Source of the DNA: Bacillota bacterium
Lineage (GTDB): Bacteria > Bacillota_I > Bacilli_A > RF39 > UBA660
Reading direction: 5' to 3'
Assembly: GCA_015059195.1 (NCBI GenBank)
Contig: SVAW01000002.1
Location: forward strand, 31,304-95,303
Length of the DNA: 64,000 nt
Shown here: piece after piece, positions 39,650-57,720 of the stretch
Layout: every line of letters starts with the position of its first letter
Numbering within the stretch: position 1 is the stretch's first letter
Translations under genes and position numbers: made by a program
Notes under the pieces: generated by a model
Seen by the model: only the letters and a program-made list of their open reading frames with translations
Told to the model about the DNA's origin: nothing
The model's database searches: none

Positions 39650-39680
39650 AAAAATTAAAAGGATGAATTTTATTCATCCT
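39650..39680 (-). terminator. Intrinsic terminator ending the Tad/T4SS cluster
   Basis: The minus strand has AGGATGAAT-AAA-ATTCATCCT followed by TTTTAATTTTT. The virD4-like stop codon lies in the loop. Confidence 0.7.
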
Positions 39681-41874
39681 CACTAAAGAAATCATCAAAA
39701 AATTGGTCATCAGTAATAAACTTAGTTGATTCTGTTGAAGTATTATCGGTCGTTTGGACTTCTTTAACGTCGTTAGCAGGTAATTCTTCACTTGGTACAT
39801 CAATGCTTTCTTTGTTAACCAAAGCCTTCTCTATTATTGGCTGTTGAGGAATATTTGGAATAAAGTTCGTTTGGGAAACTTCACTTTCAATATTCTTATT
39901 TTCAATTTTTTCATTAACTGTTGGTTGAACAACAACTTCTGGAGTAGATTGTGAAACAGTTTTCTTTTCTTCTTGTTCCCTCTCTAATCTTTCCTCTTCC
40001 TCTAATTCTGCGATTTTAGCATCTATTCGTTTAACTAAATCATCAACATTAAATCCGCTAGTTGATGGATTCTGTTCCTTATTCCCAAACATAGGTGGAA
40101 TGATAGGCATAGAACTATCTTGGGTAGGACTACCACCTAACATTGCATTAATCTTTTCCTCTTTTTTAGCTTCAACAAACGATTTTAAATTAAACACATT
40201 TACAGGCATCTTATCACGATTCGGATAGTCTGCTTTAGGATAATCTTTTTCCCAACAATTATTTTTCATCATCTGCCAGTTTGGAGTTAATTTGGTTTTA
40301 AATGGCATCATTCTAATACGAATCAATATCATTGTCCATTTAGGAAGTCTTTGTAAATCACTTACTGTTACAAGTGGGGTCGATGCAGTTTTATCCTTTT
40401 CTTTAGATTTAACTTCTCCACACATTTTACTAATTTCTTCCAATGCGTTTAACTCACTACTAATTAAGTAAACAATATTACCACAGTTTCCCTTAATAGT
40501 TTCACCATTTTCTTTACCATAAACCTCATATAATTGAGCAAAGTTTTGAATGATGAAACTAAATCTCATAGCACGAGAACGAGCTGCAGTTACCATTGTC
40601 GTTACATCTTTTAATGGTGGCATGTTGGCAAACTCATCCAAAATGAAATTTGTTCTATATGGAAGTTTTCCGCCAGATTCCTGTGCCACTCTAATTAACG
40701 TCTCATAACATTGCTTCAAGAAAATTGTTACCAAAGAATGATATGTTTTCTTTTCATCTTGAACAACGATAAATACTGCTGTTTTTTGACGTCCAATATT
40801 ATCCATATCAAAATCACTATGTGAAAGCATTTCACTCATATTTTCACGTGAAGCGAATAATTTAATTTTTTGTTTAAATACTGATAAAATACTGCCCTTA
40901 GTATCACTAGGAGCCATTAATGTTGATGATGCATTAACATAAGCTGGACCGGCTGGATCTTTATAGCTAAAATATTCCTTTATATAAGTAGTACCTGCTA
41001 TTTTTTCTTCACCAACAGTAGTCATTAAATTAATACTGTTTAAGTTTATTTCTTCCTCTTTAGCATCCTCAAAAAGTCCTAGAGCCAATCCGGCAAAATA
41101 ATCTGCTGAAGTTTTTTCCCAGAATGGATCCTGATTTTTAGATGCTTCATCATACAGAATATTTAATGCTAAGTCATCTAATAACTCACAAGCTTTATCC
41201 TGATTTCCATTCTTATATAAATTATATGGTAAGGATAACGGATTCCAACAATTTCCTTGCTGAGGATCTCTAAAGTTAAGTAAGACTATATTATATCCTT
41301 TTTCCTTTAACTCTACTGCATTCTTTTCATATATTTCACCTTTAGGATCGGTAATAATCATGGACTCGCCTTTTTTAGCAAGAACTTTAACCATTGGTTG
41401 AACAATCATTTCGGTTTTACCAGAACCAGTAGAACCAATTATTAAATTATGATATTCACCGTCATCAACCCAAATTTCACTACCATTATTAATTAAAGGG
41501 ATTCCTGCAACATCACTTTTTAAATCCTTTGCATGAACAAGCTTTAACTCTTTTTTCATTTCTTTTTCTGTAGCCCAACGTGAATATCCTTTATCTTTTT
41601 TAGGATCAGTAGAAATACCAAATCCTTTTTCTCTATCAAAGAATAAAGAAGAAACACTCATGATAATAGCAACCAAAGCACCAATATATCCTATAATTGT
41701 TGCAAAAAGATACTTACTACTAAAAGCAGGTAGAGGATTTAACCCGACTAACACACCTTCTTGAGCAAAACTTCCTAAATTTATTACCGCAATTGCAACA
41801 AAATATAATAAGAATATACTAAACACGATAAACATTAATATATCTTTAGCATCTGCCCTAAATTTCAATTTCAT
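39670..41874 (-). CDS. Type IV coupling protein (VirD4/TraG family ATPase)
   Basis: Two N-terminal TM helices, Walker A LIIGSTGSGKTE, Walker B NFILDEFANMP and the conserved SFIIQNFAQL...YG block. About 170 aa of low-complexity acidic/polar sequence form the C-terminal tail. Confidence 0.85.
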   Translation of the reverse strand: MKLKFRADAKDILMFIVFSIFLLYFVAIAVINLGSFAQEGVLVGLNPLPAFSSKYLFATIIGYIGALVAIIMSVSSLFFDREKGFGISTDPKKDKGYSRWATEKEMKKELKLVHAKDLKSDVAGIPLINNGSEIWVDDGEYHNLIIGSTGSGKTEMIVQPMVKVLAKKGESMIITDPKGEIYEKNAVELKEKGYNIVLLNFRDPQQGNCWNPLSLPYNLYKNGNQDKACELLDDLALNILYDEASKNQDPFWEKTSADYFAGLALGLFEDAKEEEINLNSINLMTTVGEEKIAGTTYIKEYFSYKDPAGPAYVNASSTLMAPSDTKGSILSVFKQKIKLFASRENMSEMLSHSDFDMDNIGRQKTAVFIVVQDEKKTYHSLVTIFLKQCYETLIRVAQESGGKLPYRTNFILDEFANMPPLKDVTTMVTAARSRAMRFSFIIQNFAQLYEVYGKENGETIKGNCGNIVYLISSELNALEEISKMCGEVKSKEKDKTASTPLVTVSDLQRLPKWTMILIRIRMMPFKTKLTPNWQMMKNNCWEKDYPKADYPNRDKMPVNVFNLKSFVEAKKEEKINAMLGGSPTQDSSMPIIPPMFGNKEQNPSTSGFNVDDLVKRIDAKIAELEEEERLEREQEEKKTVSQSTPEVVVQPTVNEKIENKNIESEVSQTNFIPNIPQQPIIEKALVNKESIDVPSEELPANDVKEVQTTDNTSTESTKFITDDQFFDDFFSEDE

Positions 41875-41885
41875 CTTTATTCCAC

Positions 41886-42575
41886 CTAACTATTATTTTT
41901 CTTATTTTTATATACAAATATTCCTACAGCAATCAATCCTACAATTGCAACACCTAATAAAACACCGATTACTATAAGTAGGGTCATATGTGATTGAATG
42001 AAATTTCTTATAACTACATCCCATCTTATCTTATCACTATACGAAAAATAAACTTCTTCTTTAGTGTGCGCATCAAACTCCCATATATGTTGATTCTTAT
42101 TTACATTAATCATATCAGCGTTCGATGCTAAAATTTGATATTCTGAATTCAACCTAAAAGTAATCTTATCTAACGTTAACATACAACCTTCATCAAATTC
42201 ACCACATACAAATCTTGAATTATTATATCCTTTTAGCCTAACTGTAGTTACATTTCCTTTTTTATTAACTAAAACAGTATTATAAAGTGTTTTGATTATA
42301 TCACTTTGTGATATCCACATAGCGTCATTAAATTTATGTGCAATTTCTACAGTAGAACTAGTAACATCATATTCAACATTTTCTTGTTTTAATGATGGAA
42401 TATTCTTAATATTATCTTGTATTAAAGTATCTAAATTCCCTAATCCATCACTACGTCCATATTCAAAATATAATTTTTCTTCAAAAGAATCAACATAAAT
42501 ATCTAAATTATATGTTACACTGCTACAACCAGTTAAAATGAAGGCCATCATCAATATCCCTAATATTTTTTTCAT
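41886..42575 (-). CDS. Lipoprotein with an additional C-terminal TM anchor (T4SS accessory)
   Basis: Lipobox MKKILGILMMAFILTGC, the C-terminal TM segment LLIVIGVLLGVAIVGLIAVGIFVY, then basic residues. The ATG at 42575 follows GGAGG, 1 nt after the upstream stop. Confidence 0.6.
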   Translation of the reverse strand: MKKILGILMMAFILTGCSSVTYNLDIYVDSFEEKLYFEYGRSDGLGNLDTLIQDNIKNIPSLKQENVEYDVTSSTVEIAHKFNDAMWISQSDIIKTLYNTVLVNKKGNVTTVRLKGYNNSRFVCGEFDEGCMLTLDKITFRLNSEYQILASNADMINVNKNQHIWEFDAHTKEEVYFSYSDKIRWDVVIRNFIQSHMTLLIVIGVLLGVAIVGLIAVGIFVYKNKKNNS

Positions 42576-42576
42576 A

Positions 42577-44193
42577 TTAACAACTACCTCCATTTATTGC
42601 ACAAACTTCAATAAATTCCTGATTTGCTAAAATATCAATCCCATTAGCATAGTTATTAAGTGCTACCAACGGATTTATTACCTTGCCGTCTCCATTATGC
42701 ACTTCAAAGTGTAAATGTGGTCCTGTAGAACAACTATCCTCTGCAGTTGTCCCGCCAACATATCCAATAACCTGCCCCTTAGAAACATTAGTACCTACAG
42801 GCAAAGTAGATAATAAGTTGTTAGATCTTCTATTTAAATGCACATATCTAGTATAATATACCGCACCAGAAGCTGTTGTGTGTTTTAGTTTAATTATACT
42901 GCTACCACACGTTACCGTCGTAGCAGTAGTAACAGCTTCTACCACACCATCTTCAAAAGCAAGAATTTGCGTATCATATCCGGCACCACCAATATCTACA
43001 CCTTTATGCGCTTGATACACTTTTTTTGTTGGATGGCAACGACAATTTGCAGGTTGGGAAGTCACTCTTAAATTTAAACCATCAGGAAGCATAGTAAATA
43101 GGCCATCTGTATTTTCCACTATAGTGAGTGTACCATTATTTAATATTCCACCCATTTTTAATATCTCATTAGCAATTTCAGCTTTAGTTCTAACTCCTTC
43201 GCGGGCAGCATCAGGATAATTATTTCCTATATAATTATTTATTAAATACTCACGATACTTAATAGCACTGCTAGAACATTCAGAGACTTCTACAAAGCCA
43301 CTTTCATCAACTGTGTCTTCATCTGTTATTTCTTCTCCTTTTAAGTATACTTTTATCAAACCATTAATTTTGGAAGTGGCATTACCACCTCTACCATCTA
43401 CATTCAAATAGTCAAAATAAGACTTATTTATATTATCTTCATCTGTTCCAGAATCATTATCTTCTTTTACCATCTGACCATAAAAAATGGTTGCAGTTAT
43501 CAAATCCTCATTAATCTTACAACTTCCTTGATAATTTGCAATGGCCTTGTTAAGTTCCTCATAATATCTTGACTGCTCATTCTGTTGACATTCCGAGGCC
43601 ACACACCAACCATCCCCACTAAACCAATTGCCAAGTTTTTCAAAGAAAGCACCTATACCATTTAGTAAATCACCAATCCATGCAATTGGTGCCAAAATTA
43701 AAGTTAATGTAGCTGCTATTATAAACAACGTCAACAGAGCCGACGCAACCGTTGTAATGAGTATAAATATTAGCTGAAGCTTGATTTGCTTAAATCCTTT
43801 TTCTACCAGTGCCTGCCCTGCATCACTATCCATGAATTTATCAATGATTTTATCTCTAATTCCCTTGGGAATCCATTTAGTATATGGTACTACTCCGGCA
43901 GCCTGTTTTAAAGCCTCCTTAGCTACCTCAGTACCCATACCTTGGACATTGGGTAGTCCTGTAGATGTTTTTCCTTTATTTTCCTGACCTGCGCCTTTTT
44001 TCTTCTTATTAGCTCCTTTATCAGAGCCATCACCAGACGCTCCCTTACCTTGTTGTTTTCCTTGATGTTGAGCGTTCTGGTTAGCCTTATTTTGTTTAAT
44101 TTTGTCAGAAAGTTTTTCGCCATTTGGTAATGTTGCTTTACTCGCATTACCTTTTACCTGAGGTGCTTTTTTCATTAAATCTTTGCCTTTCAA
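42577..44193 (-). CDS. Membrane-anchored M23 peptidoglycan endopeptidase (T4SS wall hydrolase, VirB1/PrgK/TcpG functional analog)
   Basis: The C-terminal M23 motifs are HKGVDIGG (HxxxD) and GPHLHFEVH (HxH). The N-terminal 125 aa or so are K/G/Q/N-rich, followed by hydrophobic helices. A TTG start at 44193 lies 6 nt after AGGTGGTGA. Confidence 0.8.
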   Translation of the reverse strand: MKGKDLMKKAPQVKGNASKATLPNGEKLSDKIKQNKANQNAQHQGKQQGKGASGDGSDKGANKKKKGAGQENKGKTSTGLPNVQGMGTEVAKEALKQAAGVVPYTKWIPKGIRDKIIDKFMDSDAGQALVEKGFKQIKLQLIFILITTVASALLTLFIIAATLTLILAPIAWIGDLLNGIGAFFEKLGNWFSGDGWCVASECQQNEQSRYYEELNKAIANYQGSCKINEDLITATIFYGQMVKEDNDSGTDEDNINKSYFDYLNVDGRGGNATSKINGLIKVYLKGEEITDEDTVDESGFVEVSECSSSAIKYREYLINNYIGNNYPDAAREGVRTKAEIANEILKMGGILNNGTLTIVENTDGLFTMLPDGLNLRVTSQPANCRCHPTKKVYQAHKGVDIGGAGYDTQILAFEDGVVEAVTTATTVTCGSSIIKLKHTTASGAVYYTRYVHLNRRSNNLLSTLPVGTNVSKGQVIGYVGGTTAEDSCSTGPHLHFEVHNGDGKVINPLVALNNYANGIDILANQEFIEVCAINGGSC

Positions 44194-44218
44194 ACAACAT
44201 CACCACCTAATTACTTAA

Positions 44219-46003
44219 CTACAATCCTCCACCACTACCGAAGGAATCTAATTCTTGCTCAGTCGCAATTATATTAATTTGCATTCTACGACTACCGCAC
44301 ACAAATAGTGCTTCTCCTTGATTAAATTTCTTAATCGCTTCTTTTTCATTATCATTTAAATCAATTAACTTAGCTAAATCTTCAACAGCTTGTTTTTTTA
44401 GCCCCATTGCTAAATAATATGAAGCATTGTCAAAAATAGCTTTACCTTGAGTGATAACCCCTGGATCACTAAAGTCGCTTGGTTGTTGAGTAATAATAAT
44501 TGTACCTGTATTATACTTACGAGCACGTCTTTGTACTTGTGCTAAAAAGTCTGCTCCTAAAGTATTATTTCCACTCAATAACACGTGTGCTTCATCAACC
44601 ATTAAAATAGTATTAATTTCTCTATTTAAAGTTAACCCCCATGCATACTTCAAAACGTTAAAGAATAAAGCATTTCTAATATTAGTATCTGCATTCATAA
44701 GCTCACGGATATTAAATACTATAAAATCACTTTTTGGAGATATTGTAGTATGACCGTCAAAATAATATTTTAACTCTTTAATAATCGGTCTAACTTTTAG
44801 TTCTAACATTTCTAGCACATCACGTTCATGTGTTTTTTCTGTCATCGATAATAACTTACCTCTGATAGTCGCATAAACATCTTTAAATGTTGGATAATCT
44901 TCTGATTTAAACTGTGTAAAATCAGAAGTAAAATCAATCCCAAAACGTTTATAAGTGTCTTGTAAAATTTCACTAAACATGTTAATAACATCTTCTGTCA
45001 CACTAGGATCATAATACTTTAAGAACGCTTTAACAGTTTGAATAGTACGTGTTAAAACAGTATATCCTAGTCCTTGCGCCATTTCTTCTTCATCTGCATC
45101 TACAACTACCTCAAGTGGATTTATCATACCAAATTCTCCACCTTTACCTAGGTCAATGAAATCTCCACCATACATTCTGGTCATATCTTCAAACTCACCC
45201 TCTGGGTCAATGATAACAATTTGATTATCATTACGAATATGAGTTCTAACCATTAATTTTGCAGCAGTAGATTTTCCACTTCCAGAAGTACCCAATATAA
45301 TTAGGTTCGCATTGTTTCTGTTATGTTCTTTTTTAATTTGATACAAAAACTGGTTAAATAAGATTACTCCCCCAGAGAAATCTACCCCTAAAAGTGTTGA
45401 TAACCCTGGGTCCTTTATGCTATCAAAAATGAATGGATACATAGCAGCGATAGTTGGAGCAGGGATTGGAGTTCCAATCCTATTTTCTATATCTTGTTTA
45501 CCATAAATTGGTAAAATTGATTTTAATACTTGTTCTTGTTCAAATCTTAATGGGAATGCGCGCATTTCCATTGCTTCCAAATAATTTTTAACCTGTAATT
45601 TTTTGTTAACCAATTCTTCTTCAGAATCTGCAGTCACCATTATGTGCATTTGGAAATCATATATTTTAGACTGAGTCGCTGCCAACTGAGAAATAAAATA
45701 TTCTAAAGACTCGTAGTCTTGACGAATTCTTTCTTGAATTGTCTTATCATTTTCTTGTTGATACCTTGATTTTAAATCAGCAATTTCTTTGTTTAACATT
45801 TTAGTAATTACACTAAAAGGCAGAGGTATATGTTTAATAACTACCTTAACCCCTGACATACTTGTTAGTGAAGACAAATATCCTGGACCAATAAATTTTG
45901 GATATGATACAACTGTTAATATCGTTGCATACTTATCGCTAATAACAAAATCACTTGCTCTAAATTGTAAGCCCTTAGGCGCCACTTGAGCTCTAACATC
46001 CAT
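44219..46003 (-). CDS. VirB4-family T4SS ATPase, C-terminal (motor) part
   Basis: Walker A ILGTSGSGKST, Walker B ILMVDEAH and IIITQQPSDF. The ORF starts with the mid-VirB4 segment ...KYATILTVVSYPKFIGPGYLSSL. Confidence 0.88.
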   Translation of the reverse strand: MDVRAQVAPKGLQFRASDFVISDKYATILTVVSYPKFIGPGYLSSLTSMSGVKVVIKHIPLPFSVITKMLNKEIADLKSRYQQENDKTIQERIRQDYESLEYFISQLAATQSKIYDFQMHIMVTADSEEELVNKKLQVKNYLEAMEMRAFPLRFEQEQVLKSILPIYGKQDIENRIGTPIPAPTIAAMYPFIFDSIKDPGLSTLLGVDFSGGVILFNQFLYQIKKEHNRNNANLIILGTSGSGKSTAAKLMVRTHIRNDNQIVIIDPEGEFEDMTRMYGGDFIDLGKGGEFGMINPLEVVVDADEEEMAQGLGYTVLTRTIQTVKAFLKYYDPSVTEDVINMFSEILQDTYKRFGIDFTSDFTQFKSEDYPTFKDVYATIRGKLLSMTEKTHERDVLEMLELKVRPIIKELKYYFDGHTTISPKSDFIVFNIRELMNADTNIRNALFFNVLKYAWGLTLNREINTILMVDEAHVLLSGNNTLGADFLAQVQRRARKYNTGTIIITQQPSDFSDPGVITQGKAIFDNASYYLAMGLKKQAVEDLAKLIDLNDNEKEAIKKFNQGEALFVCGSRRMQINIIATEQELDSFGSGGGL

Positions 46004-46554
46004 TAACTCATCACCGTCCCAAAATTAGTAGTTTGTCCACCATTTAAGAAATTATCTAGTATAATCCTTAAATCGTCATTAGTAGTTTGCCTGCAAGTTA
46101 GTCCTGCACTTGCAAAAGCATTTATTAAAGCGCGAATTCTTTTTTGAATTAATTCAGAATCCTTTTCTTTAAATAATAGATAATACTCTGTATCAACTAC
46201 GTTATTACTCATAAACATATTTGCCTTATTAATATCGTCAACTATTAATTTACGACGTGCATTATCTTGAACATTGTTATACAAAAGTTGAAGTTGAGAT
46301 AAATAAACATTGATGTCCACTGGTCTATCTGCTGCAATCACCCAAAATTCGTAATCTATAGTATTATAAACATTCTTCAAATTATTTATAATGCTATCTT
46401 GCATATCCTGTTCAAGGATGAAAATATTTCGAGGCATTATCTTTACCCCAGTAACTTTTACATTATCATTAAGAATTATTACTCCATTAGTAATACTTTT
46501 AATCGGAACATTATCAACAGTATATCTACTAGTTGCCGTCTTTTTCTTCGCCAT
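46003..46554 (-). CDS. VirB4-family N-terminal domain encoded as a separate ORF
   Basis: TSRYTVDNVPIKSITNGVIILNDNVKVTGVKIMPRNIFILEQDMQDSIINNL follows the pattern of the N-terminus of Gram-positive VirB4 proteins (Tn916 Orf16/ConE/TcpF type). Its stop overlaps the next start (TAATG). Confidence 0.6.
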   Translation of the reverse strand: MAKKKTATSRYTVDNVPIKSITNGVIILNDNVKVTGVKIMPRNIFILEQDMQDSIINNLKNVYNTIDYEFWVIAADRPVDINVYLSQLQLLYNNVQDNARRKLIVDDINKANMFMSNNVVDTEYYLLFKEKDSELIQKRIRALINAFASAGLTCRQTTNDDLRIILDNFLNGGQTTNFGTVMS

Positions 46555-46849
46555 TACTAAAACACCAACCTTTCCAATAATAAATTCTTCTTTCTGTATA
46601 AAATCTCCACACCGACATTATTACAGTTCTTACATTATGATAATTAGGAATCGGGAATACAAGAAATCCCGCAATTAGTGCTGGTATTAGCGCGATTACC
46701 GCATACAGCAATTGCTCAATCGGAAGAAGAGGAAGCAACAATAACGTTAATCCCACTCCTGCTCCGAACAAGCCCAAATCAAATGGCCTGAACAGCCCAA
46801 AAATCAACATTGACTTTTTTGAATTTGCCGGTATTAAAAATTGATTCAT
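46529..46849 (-). CDS. VirB3/PrgI/TcpE-like small membrane protein
   Basis: 106 aa with two TM helices and the N-terminal segment FLIPANSKKSMLIFGLF. It lies immediately upstream of VirB4, as VirB3 analogs do. Confidence 0.6.
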   Translation of the reverse strand: MNQFLIPANSKKSMLIFGLFRPFDLGLFGAGVGLTLLLLPLLPIEQLLYAVIALIPALIAGFLVFPIPNYHNVRTVIMSVWRFYTERRIYYWKGWCFSNGEEKDGN

Positions 46850-49165: not shown

Positions 49166-49552
49166 TTAAGCTCTACAATCTAAAACTTCATTTCCTTCTG
49201 CATCATATGCATCTGCAGTCTCAGAAGAAACACCATTAATTAAACAGCTAATACAGTTCCATACTTTTGTTTCCTTACTAGCAACTAAATTGAACACTAC
49301 TTGAACAATCATTACTACAAAGAACACTAAAGCAGCAGACAATAATCTTTTTAAGAATGTTTGTTGTGACTTTTTAATTTCATCTTCTTTTTGGGCCATT
49401 ACAGCCTTCCCTAAATCTAACATACCAAATATAATTAATAATACTGGTACTCCGATTTTAATTAGTGTAACTATCAAACTAACGATATTAGGAATCATTA
49501 TGTCCATAGTTAAAATACCATTACCACATTGAATACTGTCTAAAATATACAT
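49166..49552 (-). CDS. VirB2/TrbC-like two-helix pilin-like protein, copy A
   Basis: 128 aa and a tandem paralog of copy B. A core of about 110 nt is nearly identical at the DNA level. The RBS is AAGGAGGA. Confidence 0.6.
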   Translation of the reverse strand: MYILDSIQCGNGILTMDIMIPNIVSLIVTLIKIGVPVLLIIFGMLDLGKAVMAQKEDEIKKSQQTFLKRLLSAALVFFVVMIVQVVFNLVASKETKVWNCISCLINGVSSETADAYDAEGNEVLDCRA

Positions 49553-49615: not shown

Positions 49616-50581
49616 CTATTGTTTAGAAAAACCAAGTTTTCTTAACAACTCATCTAAAACCCCGTTCTTCTTATGATCGTCAACCGGTGGCATATTAAAG
49701 AAAACATTAATCCTTGATTCATACTCAAAATCTTTTACATCTTTTTCATCTAACATACTAATATTTAGCACAACCGTCTTATTTCTCAATTCGGCTAAAA
49801 TATTTGGTCTAGTCATAATAAGTTTATTTAATTTAACAATAGAAGGTTCAACTAAACAAATTACCTTATGACACATTGCTTCAGCTTGAACGCTATTGTT
49901 TATATCAATCAATATAACATCTTTTTCTTGATGTTTGTTAATAGTATTGCTAACTTGATCTGAATCAACAGATATCATTTGTTTATCATTATAATAAACA
50001 AAGTCGCGTCTATCAACTTCCATCGGCAAAACAACATAGTTTTTCTTTAATTGTTTATACATCATATAAGTTAAAGTAGTCGCCCCAGAATGATTGGTTA
50101 TGTTTTTAATTCCCAATATCATTGGGCCTGTTCTAGGGGCCTCTACAGTCTCATAACGAGTAATTACTCTTTCTTTAATTTCTTGACCTTCAGGAACTTC
50201 ACCAAATTGTTGATATTGAGCTACATCCCTATAACTATTCGGATTGTTGTACAAATACATTATTCCTTCTTCATTAGTTGTAAAATTATAAATTCCCATC
50301 GAAATCAATTTAGATAAGTATTGAGGAGATGTAGTTTCTGGCGAATTATCTAATAAGAGGATAACTTTACTCATATCTAGTGAAATTGATAGTTTTTGAA
50401 TGTTTTTTACGTCTCGATAATCTTGAATAGAAGTTATATCAAGAATCATTTTATTAAAGAAAAAGGTTTCAAAATTCTTTATTATTTCTTCAACAGGAAA
50501 AATACCGTCTATTCTTCTTATTACCTCAATATCTAAATTAGATAGTAGGTCTTTATATTTATTAGCAACTATTACATTCAT
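49616..50581 (-). CDS. TadZ/CpaE-like protein (receiver-like N-domain plus ParA/MinD-like domain with degenerate P-loop)
   Basis: The N-terminal 120 aa or so show an alternating beta/alpha receiver-like pattern (VIVAN...MILDITS...VILLLDN). The C-terminal part ILGIKNITNHSGATTLTYMM occupies the position of the KGGxGKT P-loop but lacks the Lys and Gly residues. The gene sits inside a tad locus. Confidence 0.4.
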   Translation of the reverse strand: MNVIVANKYKDLLSNLDIEVIRRIDGIFPVEEIIKNFETFFFNKMILDITSIQDYRDVKNIQKLSISLDMSKVILLLDNSPETTSPQYLSKLISMGIYNFTTNEEGIMYLYNNPNSYRDVAQYQQFGEVPEGQEIKERVITRYETVEAPRTGPMILGIKNITNHSGATTLTYMMYKQLKKNYVVLPMEVDRRDFVYYNDKQMISVDSDQVSNTINKHQEKDVILIDINNSVQAEAMCHKVICLVEPSIVKLNKLIMTRPNILAELRNKTVVLNISMLDEKDVKDFEYESRINVFFNMPPVDDHKKNGVLDELLRKLGFSKQ

Positions 50582-50595: not shown

Positions 50596-51012
50596 TTAAC
50601 CAAAAACTTTTGTCTCTCCATATACGGGGATATTAATATAGCCTCCAATTATTGGAAAATCAAAATACATATATGCAATTACTTTATAATATTTTCCTCT
50701 GTGCGAATTATAAGTATAAATGCAATATAAATAATCTGTTCCGTGATATGTTTCACTTGTAGAACCCTCCATAGTTGGACAAGTCCTACCATTATTATAT
50801 CGGTAGCCAATATCGCTCAAGGTATTATTAATATCAGCATTAATAATACCGCCGGAAAAATCTCCATCATGATGCTCAATAACATCTATAATTCGATTCT
50901 TTACCCTAAAGGCTTTTGTATAACTTATTGATGTAACCAATAAAGCCATTACAACAACAAGAAATATTATCATTATATTCATTAACATAGCATTACCTGT
51001 TGCTGCTTTCAT
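50596..51012 (-). CDS. Minor pilin-like protein (TadE/TadF position), paralog 2
   Basis: N-terminus MKAATGNAMLMNIMIIFLVVVMALLV. It shares YTKAFRVKNRIIDVIE, YCIY and MYFDFPIIGGYINIPVYGET with the neighbouring 138-aa ORF. Confidence 0.5.
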   Translation of the reverse strand: MKAATGNAMLMNIMIIFLVVVMALLVTSISYTKAFRVKNRIIDVIEHHDGDFSGGIINADINNTLSDIGYRYNNGRTCPTMEGSTSETYHGTDYLYCIYTYNSHRGKYYKVIAYMYFDFPIIGGYINIPVYGETKVFG

Positions 51013-51023
51013 TTTACACCCCT

Positions 51024-51463: not shown

Positions 51464-51682
51464 TTATGGACATAGTGTATCTACAGTCGCCATATCATTA
51501 GCCCATCCTGCAACACCTGTACAGCTTCCATTTTCCCAGACTCCACCTAATGATTGACAACAAGCAGAACGTTTTGTAGAATTTACTACACTAGTAATAA
51601 TTGGTGTTGCAATAGCAGCAACTACACCGATTAATACTAATGTAATTACAGTCATATTTGCTTCTCCAGCAGCTTCTTTCAT
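51464..51682 (-). CDS. Flp-like major pilin candidate, Cys-rich C-terminus
   Basis: 72 aa reading MKEAAG/EANMTVITLVLIGVVAAIATPIITSVV followed by a 4-Cys tail. It lies directly after tadC and has its own strong promoter. Confidence 0.5.
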   Translation of the reverse strand: MKEAAGEANMTVITLVLIGVVAAIATPIITSVVNSTKRSACCQSLGGVWENGSCTGVAGWANDMATVDTLCP

Positions 51683-51716
51683 TTATTTCACCACCGTTCT
51701 TATTTTAATTAACTAA

Positions 51717-51745: not shown

Positions 51746-52528
51746 CTAAATATTAAGCATTGACATCATTGAGACTAAAAGAAGAACTACAATGCCTCCA
51801 CCCGTAACCATTAACATAGTCATCGTTTTCTTTTCCATTGTCTCTAGTCTATCCTTATATTTTTGCTCTCTCGCCTTGTTTTGCAAAGACGAAATAGTCT
51901 TAGAAAACATAATTAACTGTTCCTGTTTTTCTTCTTGAGAACCTAATCCAAGTCGGTATAGTAACCTCATCATTCGCATTGAATCTCGAACTGGATATCT
52001 ATGCGCAAATTCCATATAAGGATCTACGGATGAATCCCCAGCCTCGATTTTATCAACCAATTTAATTAAGCCCTCTTTAAAAATATCTGGCGCAGTTGAA
52101 ACCGAGCGACGAAGCGCTACTGGCACAGTATAATGTTGAATCAATATTTCTAAACTCTTTAAATAATAAGGCAACATTAAATCAATATTATATAAATTTC
52201 TTTTATAATAAGTTTTAAGCTGCATATATGGCATCTTAAATACGAAATACGCAACAATTAAACACACCAATAAATATACAAAACTCATTTGACTTAACAA
52301 TAATATAAAAATAGCAAAGAATGCGATCAATGCATTTCTAACTCTATCACCAAACAATTTCTTTGTATCTAAATCTTTACCATACTTTACAGTAAGTAAA
52401 AACTCATAATCTTCTTCCTTTAAAAAAGCAAAATATGGTTGCGTTTCTGTAATAAATTTTTTAGAATCCAATCGTTTGTTTACAATAAGCATCAAAATAA
52501 TAATAGCACCAATTATAATAAAAACCAT
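51746..52528 (-). CDS. tadC: TadC-like platform protein (T2SS-F family)
   Basis: Membrane topology, the T2SSF-like soluble domain (...APDIFKEGLIKLVDKIEAGDSSVDPYMEFAHRYP...) and position all fit TadC. Its start overlaps the tadB stop (TAATG). Confidence 0.7.
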   Translation of the reverse strand: MVFIIIGAIIILMLIVNKRLDSKKFITETQPYFAFLKEEDYEFLLTVKYGKDLDTKKLFGDRVRNALIAFFAIFILLLSQMSFVYLLVCLIVAYFVFKMPYMQLKTYYKRNLYNIDLMLPYYLKSLEILIQHYTVPVALRRSVSTAPDIFKEGLIKLVDKIEAGDSSVDPYMEFAHRYPVRDSMRMMRLLYRLGLGSQEEKQEQLIMFSKTISSLQNKAREQKYKDRLETMEKKTMTMLMVTGGGIVVLLLVSMMSMLNI

Positions 52529-53430
52529 TATTCAGCACCTACATTCTCATTATAATATTTTTCACCACTAAGTAAAAAATAAGTATTCACAATTAAGATT
52601 CCATGCAATAAAAGTTGAATTCCAATATCATCAAGCAGTCCTATATAAGTTGAAACTCCTAGCAAAAACTGGACTAACATAACCATCAAATATAAGACAA
52701 CTCCAAATTGAACAAATTTTTTGTGAAACGCTGCACGATCAATTCGATCTCGATACACATTTTCTACTAGCATATCTATATCTAATGACATATTTTCCAA
52801 AGCCTCACTCGAATCTTTCGCACCTTCATTAGTAATTTGCAAAAACAATTGATGCATATTTCTAACTACATAATAATTATACTTTGTATTCATAAACTGT
52901 ATTGACTGATCAATAGTTCCGTTTTGATAGGCCATATCTATCATAATTTTCACATCTGTCTTAAAAGGATCTTCTAAAACATCTGACTCGTATACTCCCT
53001 CTAAAGCCTTAACAAAACTTTGAGTTGTAGCAAATTCCATAATTGTATTTGTAGTATATACCTGAACCTGTTCAAAAATAAATTCGCTATATATTCTCTT
53101 ACATCTCAAATAAGCTAAATAAGGAACAACCAGTACTGCAGCTGCAGAATAAATTATAGAAATAATTATATTGTAAAAATACAAATACGATACACCAAAA
53201 GCTGCTGCGGCAAAAATTAAAGCCTGAGTTGCATATTGTTTAGGTGTATACTCTTGTCCTAACTCTTTTACCTTGGCCCTTACTTCTTTAAAAGAATATG
53301 GGGCATATTTGTTATAAACATTGCCAACGCCTGTAATTATATATTTATATACATTTTTACCAGCATTCTTTCGATAAACTATTACAAATATCATTACCAA
53401 TGCTATAACAATAAATATAACTTTATCCAT
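52528..53430 (-). CDS. tadB: TadB-like platform protein (T2SS-F family)
   Basis: 300 aa with an N-terminal TM segment, a central soluble domain and C-terminal TM helices. It lies directly downstream of the TadA ATPase. Confidence 0.65.
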   Translation of the reverse strand: MDKVIFIVIALVMIFVIVYRKNAGKNVYKYIITGVGNVYNKYAPYSFKEVRAKVKELGQEYTPKQYATQALIFAAAAFGVSYLYFYNIIISIIYSAAAVLVVPYLAYLRCKRIYSEFIFEQVQVYTTNTIMEFATTQSFVKALEGVYESDVLEDPFKTDVKIMIDMAYQNGTIDQSIQFMNTKYNYYVVRNMHQLFLQITNEGAKDSSEALENMSLDIDMLVENVYRDRIDRAAFHKKFVQFGVVLYLMVMLVQFLLGVSTYIGLLDDIGIQLLLHGILIVNTYFLLSGEKYYNENVGAE

Positions 53431-53441
53431 AATATACCCTC

Positions 53442-54569
53442 CTATTCAAATATAATATCTATATCATCACTTATATGTATTATAGAATCATCCTCATCTT
53501 CTAAAATATTATTTCGAACAATCGCGTCTGGTGCAATATTAACCCCTTGTGCAGATAAATACTCTAACAAATATTTACTAGGATTATTTCTATATACTTT
53601 TCCATCTATGCCTTTTTTATAAATAGTGTTATGCTTTGCTTCATTTGTTTTATCATCAACATAAAACTCAGTTACTTCACCTATTTCACGTACAAACCTA
53701 CCGGTTTGTTTGCTTTGATAACCCCTAATCATAACGCCTAATTGTACATATCTATGAATAGTTTTTAAAAACTGTTCAACATCTTGGTTAGTTTCAAGCA
53801 AACTATACATACGCATAGGTATTGATGAAGCCTTATCAGCGTGTATAGTAGATAAAATGTTGTGCCCTGAAGAAATTGAATTTCTTACAGCCATAACCGC
53901 TTCAGCACTACGCACCTCAGAAAGCAATATCCATTTTGGATTTTGTCTCATACAGGTTACAAGTACATCAGAATATGAAGCAATATTATTTGTTTTCATT
54001 GCTACTATATCCCGATGTGGAAATATCCTATCTAAGTGAAGTTCCAATGTATCTTCAATAGTAATAATTTTTTCATTTTCTCTAATATGTGAGCCCAAAT
54101 ATTTAACAAACTCTGTTTTTCCAGAACCAGTCTCCCCACATACTAAAATATTGCAGTGCCCCTCTACGCACTTTATTAAAAAGTCATGAATTTCTAACGT
54201 AATGTAGTTTTCAGCCAAAATTTTTTCTTTTTGCAATCTTATTTTAGCAGGAGTTTTACGCAAAACCACTGCTATTCCATTTTTAGCGATAGATTCATGA
54301 ACAAAATTTAGACGCAACTCTGCGCTTTCCGCATCCAAAAAAGGATGTGCCATGTTAAAGGTTGTTCCCATAACATTGGAACATTGAAAAGCCAATTTTT
54401 CCATAAAGCTATCATTTATATTCGGATTTTCGATTCTAAAAATACCGTGGGATAGTGTTTTTAACCAAATTTGTCCCCCATTACTATAAGAAATATCCGT
54501 TACGTCATCATTTTCTAAATACTGTTTTAATGGCCCGAAATCTATCTGGGAAAAAAATGTATCTTCCAT
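53442..54569 (-). CDS. tadA: TadA/CpaF-family secretion ATPase
   Basis: Walker A VCGETGSGKTEF, Asp box ITIEDTLEL, Walker B ILLSEVRSAEA and His box GHNILSTIHA. Confidence 0.88.
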   Translation of the reverse strand: MEDTFFSQIDFGPLKQYLENDDVTDISYSNGGQIWLKTLSHGIFRIENPNINDSFMEKLAFQCSNVMGTTFNMAHPFLDAESAELRLNFVHESIAKNGIAVVLRKTPAKIRLQKEKILAENYITLEIHDFLIKCVEGHCNILVCGETGSGKTEFVKYLGSHIRENEKIITIEDTLELHLDRIFPHRDIVAMKTNNIASYSDVLVTCMRQNPKWILLSEVRSAEAVMAVRNSISSGHNILSTIHADKASSIPMRMYSLLETNQDVEQFLKTIHRYVQLGVMIRGYQSKQTGRFVREIGEVTEFYVDDKTNEAKHNTIYKKGIDGKVYRNNPSKYLLEYLSAQGVNIAPDAIVRNNILEDEDDSIIHISDDIDIIFE

Positions 54570-54570
54570 A

Positions 54571-55374
54571 CTATGCTCCCGGCGTAATATTATTATCTAT
54601 TTCATTAGGCAAATTAACAGTATTAGCATTTATAAAATCTTTTAGATACTGAGTGCTTACTTTAGTTTCTCCAACCGCCTCAACAGTTCCACCATGAGGT
54701 ACAGGGAATAATTCCACAGCATAAGAATATAAATATTCTGCTTTTCTTAATAATAAATGAATCTCATTGTTAACTCCAAATATAAAATATGCCGGTGTTC
54801 TATTTTCTGTAGTATTTTCAAACACATGTCGCCCATTAGCATCTTTAACAGATAAAACTTCTACATTTTCTAATAGTTTCCCAACCATTACTTTTCCACT
54901 GTCATCAATCGCCTTCATATAAATATCAACTTTATTTCCCGGAACAATTGAATTTCCGTAAGTAGTTTCCATATTTACTGAAAATTGATAAGGGATATCT
55001 CCTTCCTTGATATCAACAAATGCAGAATCTGGCATTTCATCAGCAGTTACTAACACATTGCTAAAAAACATACTTCCTTCTGGAATTACAGTGTTATAGT
55101 TCGCATACTTACCAACAATTAAACGTGATGCAGTAACAACCTTTTTAGTTACTGCAGCAGCAGGCATCTCCACATATTCAATCATATTTTCTGTAATCAA
55201 CGTTCTTGGTTGGATTTCTTGTGCTGCCACCGGAACTCTAACCGGTTTTACTTGGGTATTAATCTGACTAGTATAGCCAAAATATAGTAACCCAACAATC
55301 ACAATGACTCCTAAAATTGTAATTGTATTCTTATTCATAAAAAATCTTTTTAAAGCATTTCCAAATCCTCTCAT
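54571..55374 (-). CDS. cpaB: CpaB/RcpC-like Flp pilus assembly protein
   Basis: N-terminal TM segment, SAF-like segment VRVPVAAQEIQPRTLITENMIEYVEMP and RcpC-like segment IVPGNKVDIYMKA...LLENVEVLSVKD. Confidence 0.75.
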   Translation of the reverse strand: MRGFGNALKRFFMNKNTITILGVIVIVGLLYFGYTSQINTQVKPVRVPVAAQEIQPRTLITENMIEYVEMPAAAVTKKVVTASRLIVGKYANYNTVIPEGSMFFSNVLVTADEMPDSAFVDIKEGDIPYQFSVNMETTYGNSIVPGNKVDIYMKAIDDSGKVMVGKLLENVEVLSVKDANGRHVFENTTENRTPAYFIFGVNNEIHLLLRKAEYLYSYAVELFPVPHGGTVEAVGETKVSTQYLKDFINANTVNLPNEIDNNITPGA

Positions 55375-55402
55375 TATATTCCACCCTTTCTATTCTAAAC
55401 AC

Positions 55403-55431
55403 ATTATAAATTATTTTTATTTTCTCGTCAA
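55403..55431 (-). promoter_or_regulatory. Strong sigma-A type promoter upstream of cpaB
   Basis: Minus strand reads TTGACG, a 17-nt spacer, then TATAAT, followed by the RBS AAAGGGTGG. Confidence 0.65.
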
Positions 55432-55465
55432 CTCTTTATATCTTTTATTTCCCAACTTGACACAG

Positions 55466-56122
55466 TTAAAAATCAAATCTATCTTTCCTATCTTTAATAA
55501 TTATTATAGAGATACAGATAATGATGATCGCAGTAGAAATATATATATAATTATTTGCCCAAAAGTTACCTATAATATATATCCAATTATCTTCCGGATC
55601 TTTTTCTGTAATAATCTCTTCATCAGGTTTCTTTTTATGATTTTTTACCAATTCCACCAATTCATCGTAACTAATATTACCTGTCTCTGCCCATTTTTGA
55701 CAATATAAATAATCACTTGCATCACTGCAAATAGGTTCTTTGTAATATTTGTTATATTTAGGTAATGTAACATACAAAGTATTATATACTCGATAAGGAC
55801 AACTGCTGTTATTAGCATATACATCAAATTTGTAACTAACACCATCTTTTAGATTAGTAATAGTGAAATTATTTAATTTGTTTAGTTTGCTTGTATAACG
55901 TTTCCCGGTATTATTATCTACTACAATTAAGTCAGAATGCACATTATGAATAGTAACACTAAATGTTACACCACTATCTTTTTCAACATAATCATAACTG
56001 GTTACAATACTTGAAGCTAAAGAAGAGTATCTAAGTTTCTCTTCAGTAGTACAATATCCTTTAATTTGTATAGGGAAAAATATTACTAAAAGAAAAATTA
56101 TTATTTTAATTGCTTTTTTCAT
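55466..56122 (-). CDS. Secreted protein with C-terminal TM anchor
   Basis: Signal peptide MKKAIKIIIFLLVIFFPIQIKG, a domain of about 150 aa with 4 Cys, an acidic linker, then a C-terminal hydrophobic anchor and KDRKDRFDF. Confidence 0.5.
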   Translation of the reverse strand: MKKAIKIIIFLLVIFFPIQIKGYCTTEEKLRYSSLASSIVTSYDYVEKDSGVTFSVTIHNVHSDLIVVDNNTGKRYTSKLNKLNNFTITNLKDGVSYKFDVYANNSSCPYRVYNTLYVTLPKYNKYYKEPICSDASDYLYCQKWAETGNISYDELVELVKNHKKKPDEEIITEKDPEDNWIYIIGNFWANNYIYISTAIIIICISIIIIKDRKDRFDF

Positions 56123-56130
56123 AAATCCTC

Positions 56131-57720
56131 CTATTTTAATTTAAATCTATACACATTATTTCTAACCCTAAATACTAAATTAACTGATTCAGATAATAAT
56201 ACTTCACTTTTGATTTCAAAGTAATAATTTTTATCTGTATGTGTTGTATTTATGGCATTGTGAATTAATTGTTTTTTAATTAACCCATCTACCTCATATT
56301 CAAGACTACCAAATAAAGTAACAAGTTGTTTTAAATTAAACAGTGCGTTATCTGGCGTATTTAAACTCATGTTTAACTTTAAAACCGCTTTATCTTCAAT
56401 TCCAGACAAAGCCGGTTGCACCACATCGTAAAAGGTGTAACACTCCGTTAATGTAATACATTTTTCATAATATAATTTTGCCTTTTTTGCAATTTCAAAT
56501 TCATTTAATCTTAATTCATAATTAGCAAGTATCCCTGTTCCTACCATATAATTCTGATTTAAATTAATTACATCTTCAATTCCTGCTTTTTCTAACACCA
56601 CTGGATTTATTCTAACGATAATAGCATCGCTTTTATCTTTAAATACTCCCTCTACAACTTGTTCAGTATAAACAAGTTTCATTTCATTTTCTATTAATAC
56701 TTTTGGAACTTCATACACTAGTAAATATTCTTGAAATTCCTCAGTTAAATTTTGATTTATATATGTTATTCCTAAATCCTTAAGTTTGTCTGAATATGTA
56801 TTTATATGATAATACTTATATTCCCCAATTTGCAAAGACAATTTGCCAAAAATAAATTTAGGTGTTTTATTCAGAGACTTTATTTTGAATTTTACCACCA
56901 CTAAAGATTTATCATCAGTAGTTACTTTATTTAAACGATAATCTTTGTCAGTTATATAACTTTCTATAACTGTAATATTATAATTTAGTGGGGAAAACAT
57001 TTGACCCGTATTATACACAACATCTCTTTCAAATAATCCAATTACTAAAACCAAACCAAATAATGAAGTACCCACACAACTTAAAATAATAATTGTTAAC
57101 TTATTTTCTATAAAATAGTACTTCAAATTTCGATAAAATCTTCGAAATTTTGTTTTTAATGTGTTAGAATCAAAATCAATATTTACTTCAAACTCTTCAT
57201 TATCTAAATCAGAAATGTTTAGCTCTTGCATATCTTGATTAAAGTCAAACTTCTTCACATCCAAGCCGATAGAACGCACTAAAGATATTAACAAAGAATA
57301 TACTTGAAATACAAAAATAATATTTAAGAAATCTCTAATAGCTCGAGTAATTCTCTCATCTACTAATCCTTCTTGCATATCGCCTATGGTAGAAACCGCA
57401 TAAATATAAAGCACAATCAACAATGTATAACCTAATATATTTAACATATAATAAAATTTAGGTTTATTTTTGAAAATCATCAATATTAAAATAACTAAAG
57501 ACACAAAAATAATTATTGCTGATAAAAGGTAAGTATAATTATTAAACAAATTATTTACGGTCGCAGTTCCAATGATAGCTTGACCAGAACTGATAAAATC
57601 TTTAAAAAATTCTAATAGTGTATTTGTTTGATAAATAAGAATTCCCATACAAAATGTCATGATTAAATGAATTAACTTAAAATGTTTGATTAAAAATGCA
57701 TATGGTTTTCTTAATATCAT
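56131..57720 (-). CDS. Polytopic membrane protein with a large extracytoplasmic C-terminal domain
   Basis: About 5 N-terminal TM helices, an acidic loop, one more TM segment (IIILSCVGTSLFGLVLVIGLF), then a soluble domain of about 300 aa. I recognised no family. Confidence 0.5.
   Translation of the reverse strand: MILRKPYAFLIKHFKLIHLIMTFCMGILIYQTNTLLEFFKDFISSGQAIIGTATVNNLFNNYTYLLSAIIIFVSLVILILMIFKNKPKFYYMLNILGYTLLIVLYIYAVSTIGDMQEGLVDERITRAIRDFLNIIFVFQVYSLLISLVRSIGLDVKKFDFNQDMQELNISDLDNEEFEVNIDFDSNTLKTKFRRFYRNLKYYFIENKLTIIILSCVGTSLFGLVLVIGLFERDVVYNTGQMFSPLNYNITVIESYITDKDYRLNKVTTDDKSLVVVKFKIKSLNKTPKFIFGKLSLQIGEYKYYHINTYSDKLKDLGITYINQNLTEEFQEYLLVYEVPKVLIENEMKLVYTEQVVEGVFKDKSDAIIVRINPVVLEKAGIEDVINLNQNYMVGTGILANYELRLNEFEIAKKAKLYYEKCITLTECYTFYDVVQPALSGIEDKAVLKLNMSLNTPDNALFNLKQLVTLFGSLEYEVDGLIKKQLIHNAINTTHTDKNYYFEIKSEVLLSESVNLVFRVRNNVYRFKLK

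Follow-up and report, generated by a model that had tools for sequence, protein, structure and literature searches.

Why does the chromosome of a genome-reduced gut bacterium carry, in one tightly spaced run of genes, both a Tad-like pilus module and a type IV secretion system (T4SS) of the Gram-positive conjugation type, and is this cluster a mobile element or a fixed property of its host? We addressed this question in a 64-kb stretch of contig SVAW01000002.1 from a member of the order RF39 (hereafter the window, meaning the whole stretch), in which the cluster occupies positions 39670-57720 on the minus strand. RF39 has no cultured member (PMC9606305), and its genomes are reduced and auxotrophic (PMC12306168). 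An original prediction, made without database searches, described the cluster as a domesticated hybrid of two machines. We conclude that the cluster probably descends from a Gram-positive conjugation apparatus with an integral Tad-like module, is inherited vertically and fixed in the chromosome, and is kept as a core trait no longer linked to a relaxase or other mobility functions. The unusual part is the fixed, relaxase-less and strongly conserved chromosomal state in RF39, not the pairing itself.

Organization and chromosomal setting of the cluster

The cluster is composed of two modules, a Tad-like pilus module and a monoderm T4SS, carried on 19 open reading frames (ORFs) that all lie on the minus strand and run from 57720 to 39670 with intergenic gaps of -26 to +108 nucleotides (nt). 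A ribosome-binding site was recognizable for 18 of the 19 ORFs, the exception being the lipoprotein gene. One terminator-like hairpin (57846-57820) follows the tRNA-Leu(CAA) gene, upstream of the first cluster gene; a second closes the cluster, and past it a promoter-like site (39651-39623) lies upstream of the rhodanese gene. ORF layout, gaps, ribosome-binding sites and boundary hairpins thus bear out the predicted block of 19 tight, co-directional genes. Within the block, promoter-like sites occur in the gaps before the CpaB gene, the Flp-like gene (51745-51717, within a 63-nt gap) and the gene for VirB2-like protein a (TTGACA-17-TATGAT, 49604-49576). As read from the sequence, NTPase Walker motifs are intact, and the Walker A motif of the TadZ-like protein is degenerate. 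The boundary features are as follows:

57884-57968, minus strand: tRNA-Leu(CAA), flanking the proximal end of the cluster
39659-39681, minus strand: terminator-like hairpin at the VirD4 stop codon, marking the distal end of the cluster

GC content of the cluster (0.29-0.36) and its strand skews match those of the flanks (0.27-0.34), in agreement with an earlier impression by eye that composition does not obviously change. Mobility genes were sought by a Pfam scan of the cluster ORFs and 30 window ORFs unrecognized by eye, the remainder having been identified from their translations. No relaxase (MOB), integrase/recombinase, Rep or Par protein was found among the Pfam-scanned window ORFs, in which the scans identified housekeeping genes such as recU, dnaD and spoIVA; those recognized by translation include lon, rny, recA, ligA and a gene for a class A penicillin-binding protein. 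Precomputed Pfam lists for related loci showed no relaxase in their 10-kb flanks. The tRNA-Leu 3' end has no second copy anywhere in the window, no direct repeats flank the cluster, and no att-like repeats were found. Pfam scans and repeat searches therefore upheld the claim that the window lacks mobility and DNA-processing genes, and neither the flanking direct repeats nor the adjacent relaxase or integrase that would mark an integrative and conjugative element (ICE) was found in it. The cluster is embedded among core genes, as had also been proposed. Here rnr, smpB, rmuC and the rhodanese gene were confirmed by precomputed Pfam lists or Rfam, and transfer-messenger RNA (tmRNA) and RNase P RNA by Rfam; the identity of scpAB rests on the naming in the original prediction and on reading of the translation.

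Conservation and selection across RF39

A survey of a collection with one genome per species identified a VirB4 relative in at least 548 species-representative genomes, of which the best 80, showing 80-95% identity, were compared. Database relatives of VirB4 number more than 7000; the top 120 are 84-100% identical and derive from metagenome-assembled genomes labelled Firmicutes, Bacilli, Mollicutes or Tenericutes. Those of the 80 genomes that have a published GTDB placement belong to RF39. Candidatus (Ca.) Faecisoma (= GTDB CAG-878) and Ca. Fimihabitans (= UMGS1648) are placed in family CAG-822 of this order (PMC8035907).

The downstream junction rhodanese-rmuC-DUF2238-rnr is common to dozens of species-level genomes, with the rhodanese gene at most 1.5 kb downstream of VirD4 in 53 of 62 loci. 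Tad genes lie directly upstream of the T4SS in 64 of the 65 species-level loci having enough upstream sequence, and colinearity holds for 77 of 78 loci. Comparison across genomes thus revealed site conservation, with the cluster at the same rmuC-side locus across species and mostly colinear. Median amino-acid identity to the window was 83% for VirB4, 78% for TadA (the secretion ATPase), 73% for TadB and 69% for VirD4; the housekeeping neighbors RmuC and RNase R gave 75% and 69%, and the pilins, VirB6 and the lipoprotein 27-56%. Ratios of nonsynonymous to synonymous substitution rates (dN/dS), computed against the three closest species and rough because dS is saturated, were 0.02-0.05 for VirB4, 0.03-0.05 for TadA, 0.04-0.06 for TadB and 0.08-0.10 for VirD4, with RmuC at 0.04-0.06. 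Surface components gave 0.15-0.36, and the Flp-like gene about 1 in one comparison. Pairwise divergence of VirB4, VirD4, TadB and TadZ correlated with that of RmuC (r = 0.65-0.80), and none of 999 permutations reached values as high. Collectively, conservation and dN/dS mark the cluster as a core trait that is inherited vertically and strongly constrained by purifying selection, rather than as a mobile element. The suggested domestication is strongly supported by occurrence of the same locus in dozens of species, purifying selection at housekeeping level and co-divergence with rmuC.

Two groups of loci depart from this arrangement. In L007-L009 (Ca. Faecisoma-type) the T4SS stands at the rmuC locus as elsewhere but has no Tad module next to it, nusA-infB lying upstream instead. 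L093/L094, from a very prevalent lineage, carry the Tad module without an adjacent T4SS, gpsB-rodZ-pgsA-recA-rny coming next. The modules are therefore separable by rearrangement.

T4SS module

Family models, folds and ortholog matches showed the predicted gene inventory to be essentially correct. Profile hidden Markov models, proposed as a check on every gene, matched the T4SS genes apart from the lipoprotein gene, the secretion ATPase and CpaB; they left the TadB, TadC, Flp-like and minor pilin candidates unmatched, and the TadZ-like protein was recognized by fold only. VirB4, VirD4, VirB6, VirB3/PrgI and a cell-wall hydrolase stand in a single cluster, as in a T4SS of the Gram-positive MPF_FATA type. 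The module comprises (lengths in amino acids, aa):

49166-49552, minus strand: VirB2-like (T4SS_pilin) protein a, 128 aa, a two-helix hairpin; PF18895 in orthologs, paralog of protein b
48798-49151, minus strand: VirB2-like (T4SS_pilin) protein b, 117 aa; PF18895 E 0.095 for protein b itself
46869-48689, minus strand: VirB6/TrbL-like polytopic channel protein whose C-terminal extension varies, from family models
46529-46849, minus strand: VirB3/PrgI-like small membrane protein, between VirB6 and VirB4
46003-46554, minus strand: VirB4 N-terminal fragment, a separate gene, 183 aa, TrsD/TraC-like; NF045975 positions 96-276, E 1.4e-15
44219-46003, minus strand: VirB4 ATPase C-terminal part, 594 aa; Walker A GTSGSGKS, matched by NF045975 and PDB 4AG5
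42577-44193, minus strand: cell-wall hydrolase (VirB1 analogue) ending in an M23 peptidase domain; PF01551 E 3.8e-17
41886-42593, minus strand: lipoprotein with lipobox LTGC and a C-terminal transmembrane (TM) helix, from sequence reading
39670-41874, minus strand: VirD4 coupling protein (type IV coupling protein, T4CP) of the CD1115 family with a variable acidic C-terminal tail, from family models

The C-terminal part of VirB4 matched NF045975, the Mycoplasma-ICE VirB4 model, at E 1.6e-108 (363.6 bits versus a 590-bit equivalog cut-off), the CD1110 family at 2.3e-53 and the solved VirB4 domain PDB 4AG5 at E 8e-57; AAA_10 and P-loop_TraG also matched. The N-terminal fragment, which has a precomputed PF26593 TraC-like assignment, gave 97.5% in hhalign to a 227-aa gene upstream of VirB4 on the Bacillus thuringiensis plasmid pBMB68, and the two parts jointly cover NF045975. 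VirB4 is split into two genes in 82 of 82 loci examined. VirD4 scored 286.6 bits with NF045973, over the 250-bit cut-off, and matched PF02534 at E 1.5e-53. VirB6 gave E 5.3e-8 with NF045889 (Mbov_0396 ICE TM protein; 32.7 bits versus a 70-bit equivalog cut-off), and PF19597 TrbL_4 matched 7 of 10 orthologs (best E 3.4e-9); the protein evolves fast, with a median identity of 33% and dN/dS of about 0.33. A PrgI model matched 3 of 20 VirB3 orthologs, and in hhalign the pBMB68 PrgI protein scored 65% (E 6e-5) and the DUF5592 protein of the Enterococcus faecium plasmid pZB18 scored 39%. The lipoprotein had no match in family-model scans and likewise evolves fast (median identity 27%). In L007-L009 a SpoIID+CHAP hydrolase (11806-14112) takes the place of the M23 enzyme, between flanking T4SS genes that are 68-85% identical.

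VirB2-like proteins a and b are 63% identical to each other, PF18895 (T4SS_pilin) matches 11 of 25 orthologs, and the loop GMLDLGKAVMAQKEDEIKKGQQ of protein a is conserved; a profile of the ortholog alignment found no match among PDB sequences. Two larger secreted proteins encoded outside the operon end in the same domain:

36424-37578, plus strand: 384-aa secreted protein whose C-terminal 110 aa are a VirB2-like domain
10499-11743, minus strand: 414-aa secreted protein with a C-terminal T4SS_pilin domain, 28 kb from the cluster

The C-terminus of the former is 42-50% identical to both small proteins (E 1e-25 to 1e-30). The latter is about 30% identical to them (E 1e-10) and matches PF18895 at E 9.6e-6 (26.0 bits versus a 26.6-bit cut-off). 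Comparable fusions occur in loci L002, L005 and L095, and small arrays of VirB2-like genes are present in other lineages too. VirB2-like proteins are thus not confined to diderms and Patescibacteria.

Tad-like module and upstream genes

Ten genes precede the T4SS module:

56131-57720, minus strand: first gene, 529-aa polytopic membrane protein with 4-5 N-terminal TM helices and a large extracytoplasmic domain
55466-56122, minus strand: 218-aa secreted protein with a signal peptide and C-terminal TM anchor, from sequence reading
54571-55374, minus strand: CpaB/RcpC-like SAF-domain pilus assembly protein; TIGR03177, RcpC, SAF
53442-54569, minus strand: secretion ATPase of the CpaF/TadA-VirB11-FlaI group; Walker A GETGSGKT intact
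52528-53430, minus strand: TadB-like platform candidate, a membrane protein of 300 aa whose gene overlaps the following one by 1 nt
51746-52528, minus strand: TadC-like platform candidate, 260-aa membrane protein, from position, hhalign and a low-confidence fold
51464-51682, minus strand: Flp-like major pilin candidate, 72 aa, with a leader and hydrophobic helix
51024-51440, minus strand: minor pilin/TadE-like candidate 1, 138 aa, leader M(K/R)E..G, paralog of candidate 2
50596-51012, minus strand: minor pilin/TadE-like candidate 2, 138 aa, leader M(K/R)E..G, paralog of candidate 1
49616-50581, minus strand: TadZ-like protein with an N-terminal receiver-like and a MinD/ParA-fold domain, from fold; degenerate Walker A

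The first two genes belong to the cluster because their orthologs hold the same position in distant relatives. The 529-aa protein, which has no Pfam or NCBIfam match, has a full-length ortholog at the equivalent position in L095 (34% identity, E 1e-85), and the 218-aa protein, which shows a weak fn3 match (E 0.0026), has such orthologs in L093 (33%) and L095 (28%). The 529-aa protein was considered as a prepilin peptidase and rejected, as its sole GD-type motif (IGD) is not conserved in the L095 ortholog.

Two components of this module were recognized by sequence models. CpaB matched TIGR03177 at E 5.2e-12, significant yet under the curated cut-off, RcpC at E 2.9e-6 and SAF at E 1.1e-3, and gave 99.6% in hhalign to the SAF-domain protein of pBMB68. 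The secretion ATPase matched PF00437 (T2SSE) at E 2.7e-27 and the VirB11 (3.4e-33), TadA-conjugal (2e-28), TrbB (2e-27) and FlaI (1e-26) models, all under cut-offs; among PDB sequences, FlaI (5e-18), CpaF (1e-17) and VirB11 (2e-16) followed, so that the subfamilies score equally well.

The platform candidates are more elusive. In hhalign, both matched genes behind the pBMB68 ATPase: the TadB candidate matched the first (77%, E 2e-5, 247 columns) and the TadC candidate the second (95%, E 2e-8). Against an Alkaliphilus protein annotated as T2SSF, the TadC candidate scored 57% (E 1e-4) and the other platform candidate 6%. An AlphaFold2 (AF2) model of the TadC candidate (pLDDT 66.9) had the EpsF cytoplasmic domain 2vmb_B as its top Foldseek PDB match (prob 0.89, E 0.66). 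PF00482 (T2SSF) matched none of 30 orthologs of the platform candidates, the window copies had no Pfam or NCBIfam match, and tblastn of both against plasmids returned nothing at E <= 1e-3. The TadB candidate family is narrow, with 234 matches among 1.84e9 representative proteins; its distant relatives from this search carry no Pfam domain and therefore provide no transitive link to T2SSF. Ortholog profiles of the TadB, TadC and TadZ-like proteins found no match among PDB sequences.

In about 40 species the N-terminus of the Flp-like candidate, MKEAAG followed by EANMTVITIVLIG, is nearly invariant, and its Cys-rich C-terminus varies; the leader and mature start (MKEAAG, then EANMTV...) are followed by a hydrophobic helix. 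The canonical G/xxxxEY motif is absent, and no Flp model matched the window copy or its orthologs. This 72-aa protein is pilin-like in form only. In both minor pilin candidates a hydrophobic helix containing an invariant Asn comes after the leader, and neither protein matched TadE or DUF4320. Alignment by hhalign of the pilin candidates, which are short and hydrophobic, with annotated Flp, TadE/TadG, DUF4320 and pZB18 VirB2 proteins gave no signal. The combination of leader and hydrophobic helix in all three small proteins is a hallmark of what would be a common prepilin-type processing signal. The TadZ-like protein had no sequence-model match. Its AF2 model (pLDDT 83) matched MinD 4v03, ParA 3cwq, HypB and BcsQ in Foldseek (E about 1e-4, prob 1.0) and, over both domains, the two-domain Eubacterium rectale protein 3FKQ (E 4e-4), which we take to be TadZ. 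The TadZ-like identity is confirmed by this predicted fold.

The description of this region as a complete Tad module held for the ATPase, CpaB and the TadZ-like protein. It was too strong overall, because a nearby prepilin peptidase, the Flp motif and T2SSF matches were not found. Labels of the TadB, TadC and pilin candidates are supported by cluster position, the MKEAxG leader, homology to plasmid genes and a weak match of TadC to EpsF in Foldseek, and the label Tad-like module is justified. A DUF5411 protein directly precedes CpaB in L093-L096 (about 6100-7050) and on pBMB68 (L090, 26280-26708). Both it and a 696-943-aa protein upstream of it are missing from the window, whose version of the module is therefore trimmed.

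Further observations concern this module and its surroundings in other loci. L093/L094 have a Hydrolase_3 (HAD) gene inserted on the opposite strand between the TadC and Flp-like genes (10958-11617, minus strand), and L094 has an Abi_2 abortive-infection gene inserted between recA and rny (17384-18250). Elsewhere in the window, ORF 1373-2107 (minus strand) encodes a 244-aa protein with a type IV prepilin-like N-terminus, MKLNNRG followed by FAVTSIIY..., which hints at a prepilin peptidase and another pilin-type system elsewhere in the genome.

Competing explanations and proposed function

The families from which the cluster is built are all conjugation-associated, with nearest annotated relatives on conjugative plasmids and Mycoplasma ICEs, and the cluster lies right against the 3' side of tRNA-Leu, where integration classically occurs. 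An ordinary ICE or integrated plasmid, with relaxase, integrase and att sites outside the region examined, is nonetheless very improbable and largely refuted: the tRNA 3' end is unduplicated and not accompanied by flanking repeats, the 64-kb window is devoid of a recombinase or relaxase, the cluster's position is shared by 53-64 of about 62-65 species loci, as is the downstream junction (rhodanese-rmuC-DUF2238-rnr) by dozens of species-level genomes, dN/dS and identity are at housekeeping level with divergence tracking rmuC, and GC and skew equal those of the flanks. It is also unlikely, to a lesser degree, that a Tad-like adhesion pilus and a separate T4SS are functionally independent neighbors. 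Promoter-like sites before CpaB, the Flp-like gene and VirB2a would suit such an arrangement, as would T4SS genes without adjacent Tad genes in L007-L009 and Tad genes, by gpsB-recA, without an adjacent T4SS in L093/L094. Against it, adjacency and order are kept in 64 of 65 species loci, no terminator-like site lies between the TadZ-like gene and VirB2a, and the pairing turns up again, differently ordered, on unrelated conjugative plasmids, which argues for a functional partnership older than RF39.

A relaxase-less chromosomal cluster in a reduced, auxotrophic genome (PMC12306168) might also be a DNA-uptake (competence) system like Helicobacter pylori ComB or archaeal Ced, importing DNA for recombination or nucleotides. 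We regard this as quite improbable, as similarity to CedB/CedD is marginal and the VirD4 coupling protein is conserved in the operon under purifying selection. We know of no VirD4 coupling protein in ComB. Furthermore, the essential role of the analogous Saccharibacteria T4SS is independent of ComEC (PMC12857230).

Several points weigh against our interpretation of the cluster as a fixed, relaxase-less descendant of a conjugation apparatus with an integral Tad-like module. A relaxase or oriT could lie elsewhere in the genome, outside the 64-kb window, and to our knowledge Mycoplasma ICEs transfer without a canonical relaxase. As rmuC is physically linked to the cluster, co-divergence by itself leaves room for transfer of a larger segment. 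No curated family model matches TadB, TadC, the Flp-like protein or either minor pilin, and no Peptidase_A24/TadV prepilin peptidase was found among the scanned window ORFs or, according to precomputed Pfam lists (L001-L009, L093-L096), at up to 10 kb from the cluster in six further lineages; pilus assembly by the Tad-like module therefore remains putative. Because of the internal promoter-like sites, the two modules may be expressed and act separately, and they are unlinked in at least two lineages, so that linkage is not obligatory. Finally, any function assigned to the cluster is an inference from its genes.

A mechanism can be proposed for the domesticated apparatus. The Tad-like ATPase and platform would polymerize pilins bearing the MKEAxG leader into a filament that contacts another cell, and the M23 hydrolase would open the peptidoglycan. 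VirB4, VirB3 and VirB6 would form a membrane channel decorated by VirB2-domain proteins, several with variable surface domains, into which VirD4 would feed a macromolecular substrate, either DNA or protein, resulting in contact-dependent transfer. Two forms of exchange appear about equally likely: chromosomal DNA could pass from one RF39 cell to another, or protein- or nutrient-related exchange could take place with a partner cell in the manner of Patescibacteria. Fast evolution of surface parts, including pilins, the VirB6 tail, the lipoprotein and hydrolase swapping, fits variable interaction partners. More tentatively, RF39, a highly prevalent gut order, may depend on a combined Tad and T4SS machine for an obligate cell-to-cell lifestyle, in the form of attachment to and macromolecule exchange with a partner bacterium or host cell, or of obligate chromosomal mating; we consider this possible and rather doubtful. 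At least 548 species-level genomes keep this large surface machine under selection of housekeeping strength, which is a lead on how RF39 contacts other cells.

Other features of the window

A full-length SpoIVA with three Pfam domains (E 1e-109) is encoded at 23403-24878 (minus strand) and a SpoVID-N/LysM protein at 3352-4059 (minus strand). Thus, a genome-reduced organism of RF39 type retains spore-coat morphogenesis genes; sporulation loss in these orders has reportedly been the subject of a 2024 study. A T-box leader (1132-1331, minus strand; 134.8 bits) lies directly upstream of an HD-domain ORF (369-1133), an unusual T-box target. Class B RNase P RNA (14831-15171, minus strand; 302 bits) overlaps the first 15 or so codons of ORF 14319-14873 (HTH_25/RodZ-like), whose true start is therefore probably downstream; orthologs have 163 aa compared to 184 aa. 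ORFs 15578-16678 and 32159-33691 (both minus strand) encode N-terminally anchored proteins that have no Pfam match and share, by eye, the motif YYSS..NLLPQ..G....V....L.N after the TM helix. They may constitute a paralogous surface-protein family.

Comparison with known systems

The original prediction considered a Tad module next to a Gram-positive T4SS unusual. This did not hold, as pBMB68, pZB18 and plasmids of the pLS20 family already carry the pairing. The nearest plasmid relatives of VirB4 are on B. thuringiensis plasmids, at about 30% identity, and pBMB68 (NZ_CP010581.1, L090) has the same two-module composition as the window. Its T4SS part comprises VirD4 (CD1115), TrbL/VirB6, PrgI/VirB3, a separate N-terminal VirB4-like gene, VirB4 and a hydrolase; its Tad-like part comprises DUF5411, SAF/CpaB, a ParA-like ATPase and a T2SS/T4P-type ATPase, with two membrane proteins of about 300 aa next and then small proteins, DUF4320 among them. 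Homologs of eight window proteins occur on pBMB68; identity is 30% for VirB4, 31% for VirD4, 27% for the ATPase and 29% for CpaB. The two differ in that pBMB68 is a plasmid with a MobP3 relaxase, primase and replication functions, whereas the RF39 locus is chromosomal and without a relaxase. On pBMB68 the T4SS comes first and the Tad-like module about 9 kb downstream, and its hydrolase is NlpC/P60 instead of M23.

On pZB18, a corresponding block encodes a CpaF/VirB11 ATPase, two unnamed neighbors, small proteins, TrbC/VirB2, VirD4 (CD1115) and a pLS20_p028-family TM protein; unlike the RF39 locus, pZB18 is typed MOBP. In pLS20-family plasmids, 'VirB11' (gene 37) is followed by membrane and small TM proteins (PMC8557374). 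The authors of that study named the ATPase VirB11, noted it as an unusual third ATPase and stated that pilus homologs were absent (PMC8557374). Both pZB18 and the pLS20 family resemble the window in having a VirB11/CpaF ATPase, VirB2, CD1115 VirD4, and VirB6-like and VirB3-like proteins. They differ in being mobile, relaxase-bearing and experimentally conjugative, have no annotated CpaB-like gene, and show about 31-33% ATPase similarity to the window. Given these pairings, the hybrid was inherited from a conjugative ancestor and is not a new fusion; the Tad/T4SS pairing is ancestral to a class of Gram-positive conjugation systems, of which the RF39 cluster is a domesticated descendant. Accordingly, the 'VirB11' genes of pLS20, pBMB68 and pZB18 probably belong to a Tad-like pilus module that has platform and pilin-like genes of its own.

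Mycoplasma ICEs supply the best-scoring curated families for VirB6 and VirB4 (Mbov_0396/Mbov_0397), although these are not equivalogs. RF39 and Mycoplasmatales both belong to class Bacilli. Mycoplasma ICEs are mobile and carry a DDE recombinase, and VirB4 is split in the window, unlike in these elements. We know of no Tad-like module in Mycoplasma ICEs. A functional precedent for cooperation of a pilus with a T4SS is found in the IncI R64 thin pilus and PAPI-1. Both place a type-IV-filament pilus beside a T4SS for mating-pair formation, and the pilus is essential for PAPI-1 transfer (PMC12857230). These systems differ from the RF39 cluster in being diderm, with type IVb pili, and mobile with relaxases, and they bear no specific sequence relationship to it.

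We found no description of a T4SS or pili in RF39 in the literature covered, which excluded subscription journals, and a comparative paper on Tenericutes/RF39 does not mention these systems. The closest functional analogue would be the T4SS of Patescibacteria (candidate phyla radiation), for which essentiality has been established. In Patescibacteria the T4SS is chromosomal, occurs throughout the lineage, mostly lacks a relaxase and falls within MPF_FATA; it has TrsD (a split VirB4 N-terminal gene), PrgI, VirB6, VirB2-like arrays and, next to virB4, M23/lysozyme-type hydrolases (PMC12102498, PMC12857230). The compositional features of such an exapted T4SS, judged against the published description (PMC12102498), are found in the RF39 cluster. 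As exemplified by Ca. Southlakia epibionticum, the two are alike in being monoderm and chromosomal, with a split VirB4, VirB2 arrays and reduced-genome hosts, and the VirB2-domain fusions and arrays of RF39 loci recall the VirB2 arrays of Patescibacteria. They differ in phylum and in that the Patescibacteria T4CP is usually away from virB4 and non-essential, whereas VirD4 of RF39 is operon-encoded; moreover, the Patescibacteria T4SS cooperates with unlinked type IV pili, whereas the Tad-like module of RF39 is contiguous. In Saccharibacteria the T4SS is essential for epibiotic growth (PMC12857230), and the cluster of the uncultured, genome-reduced gut order RF39 parallels that system. Should RF39 indeed depend on its cluster for an obligate cell-to-cell lifestyle, it would mean that a monoderm conjugation system had become a core physiological organelle twice, independently, and that a type-IV-filament pilus was physically integrated in such a system for the first time.

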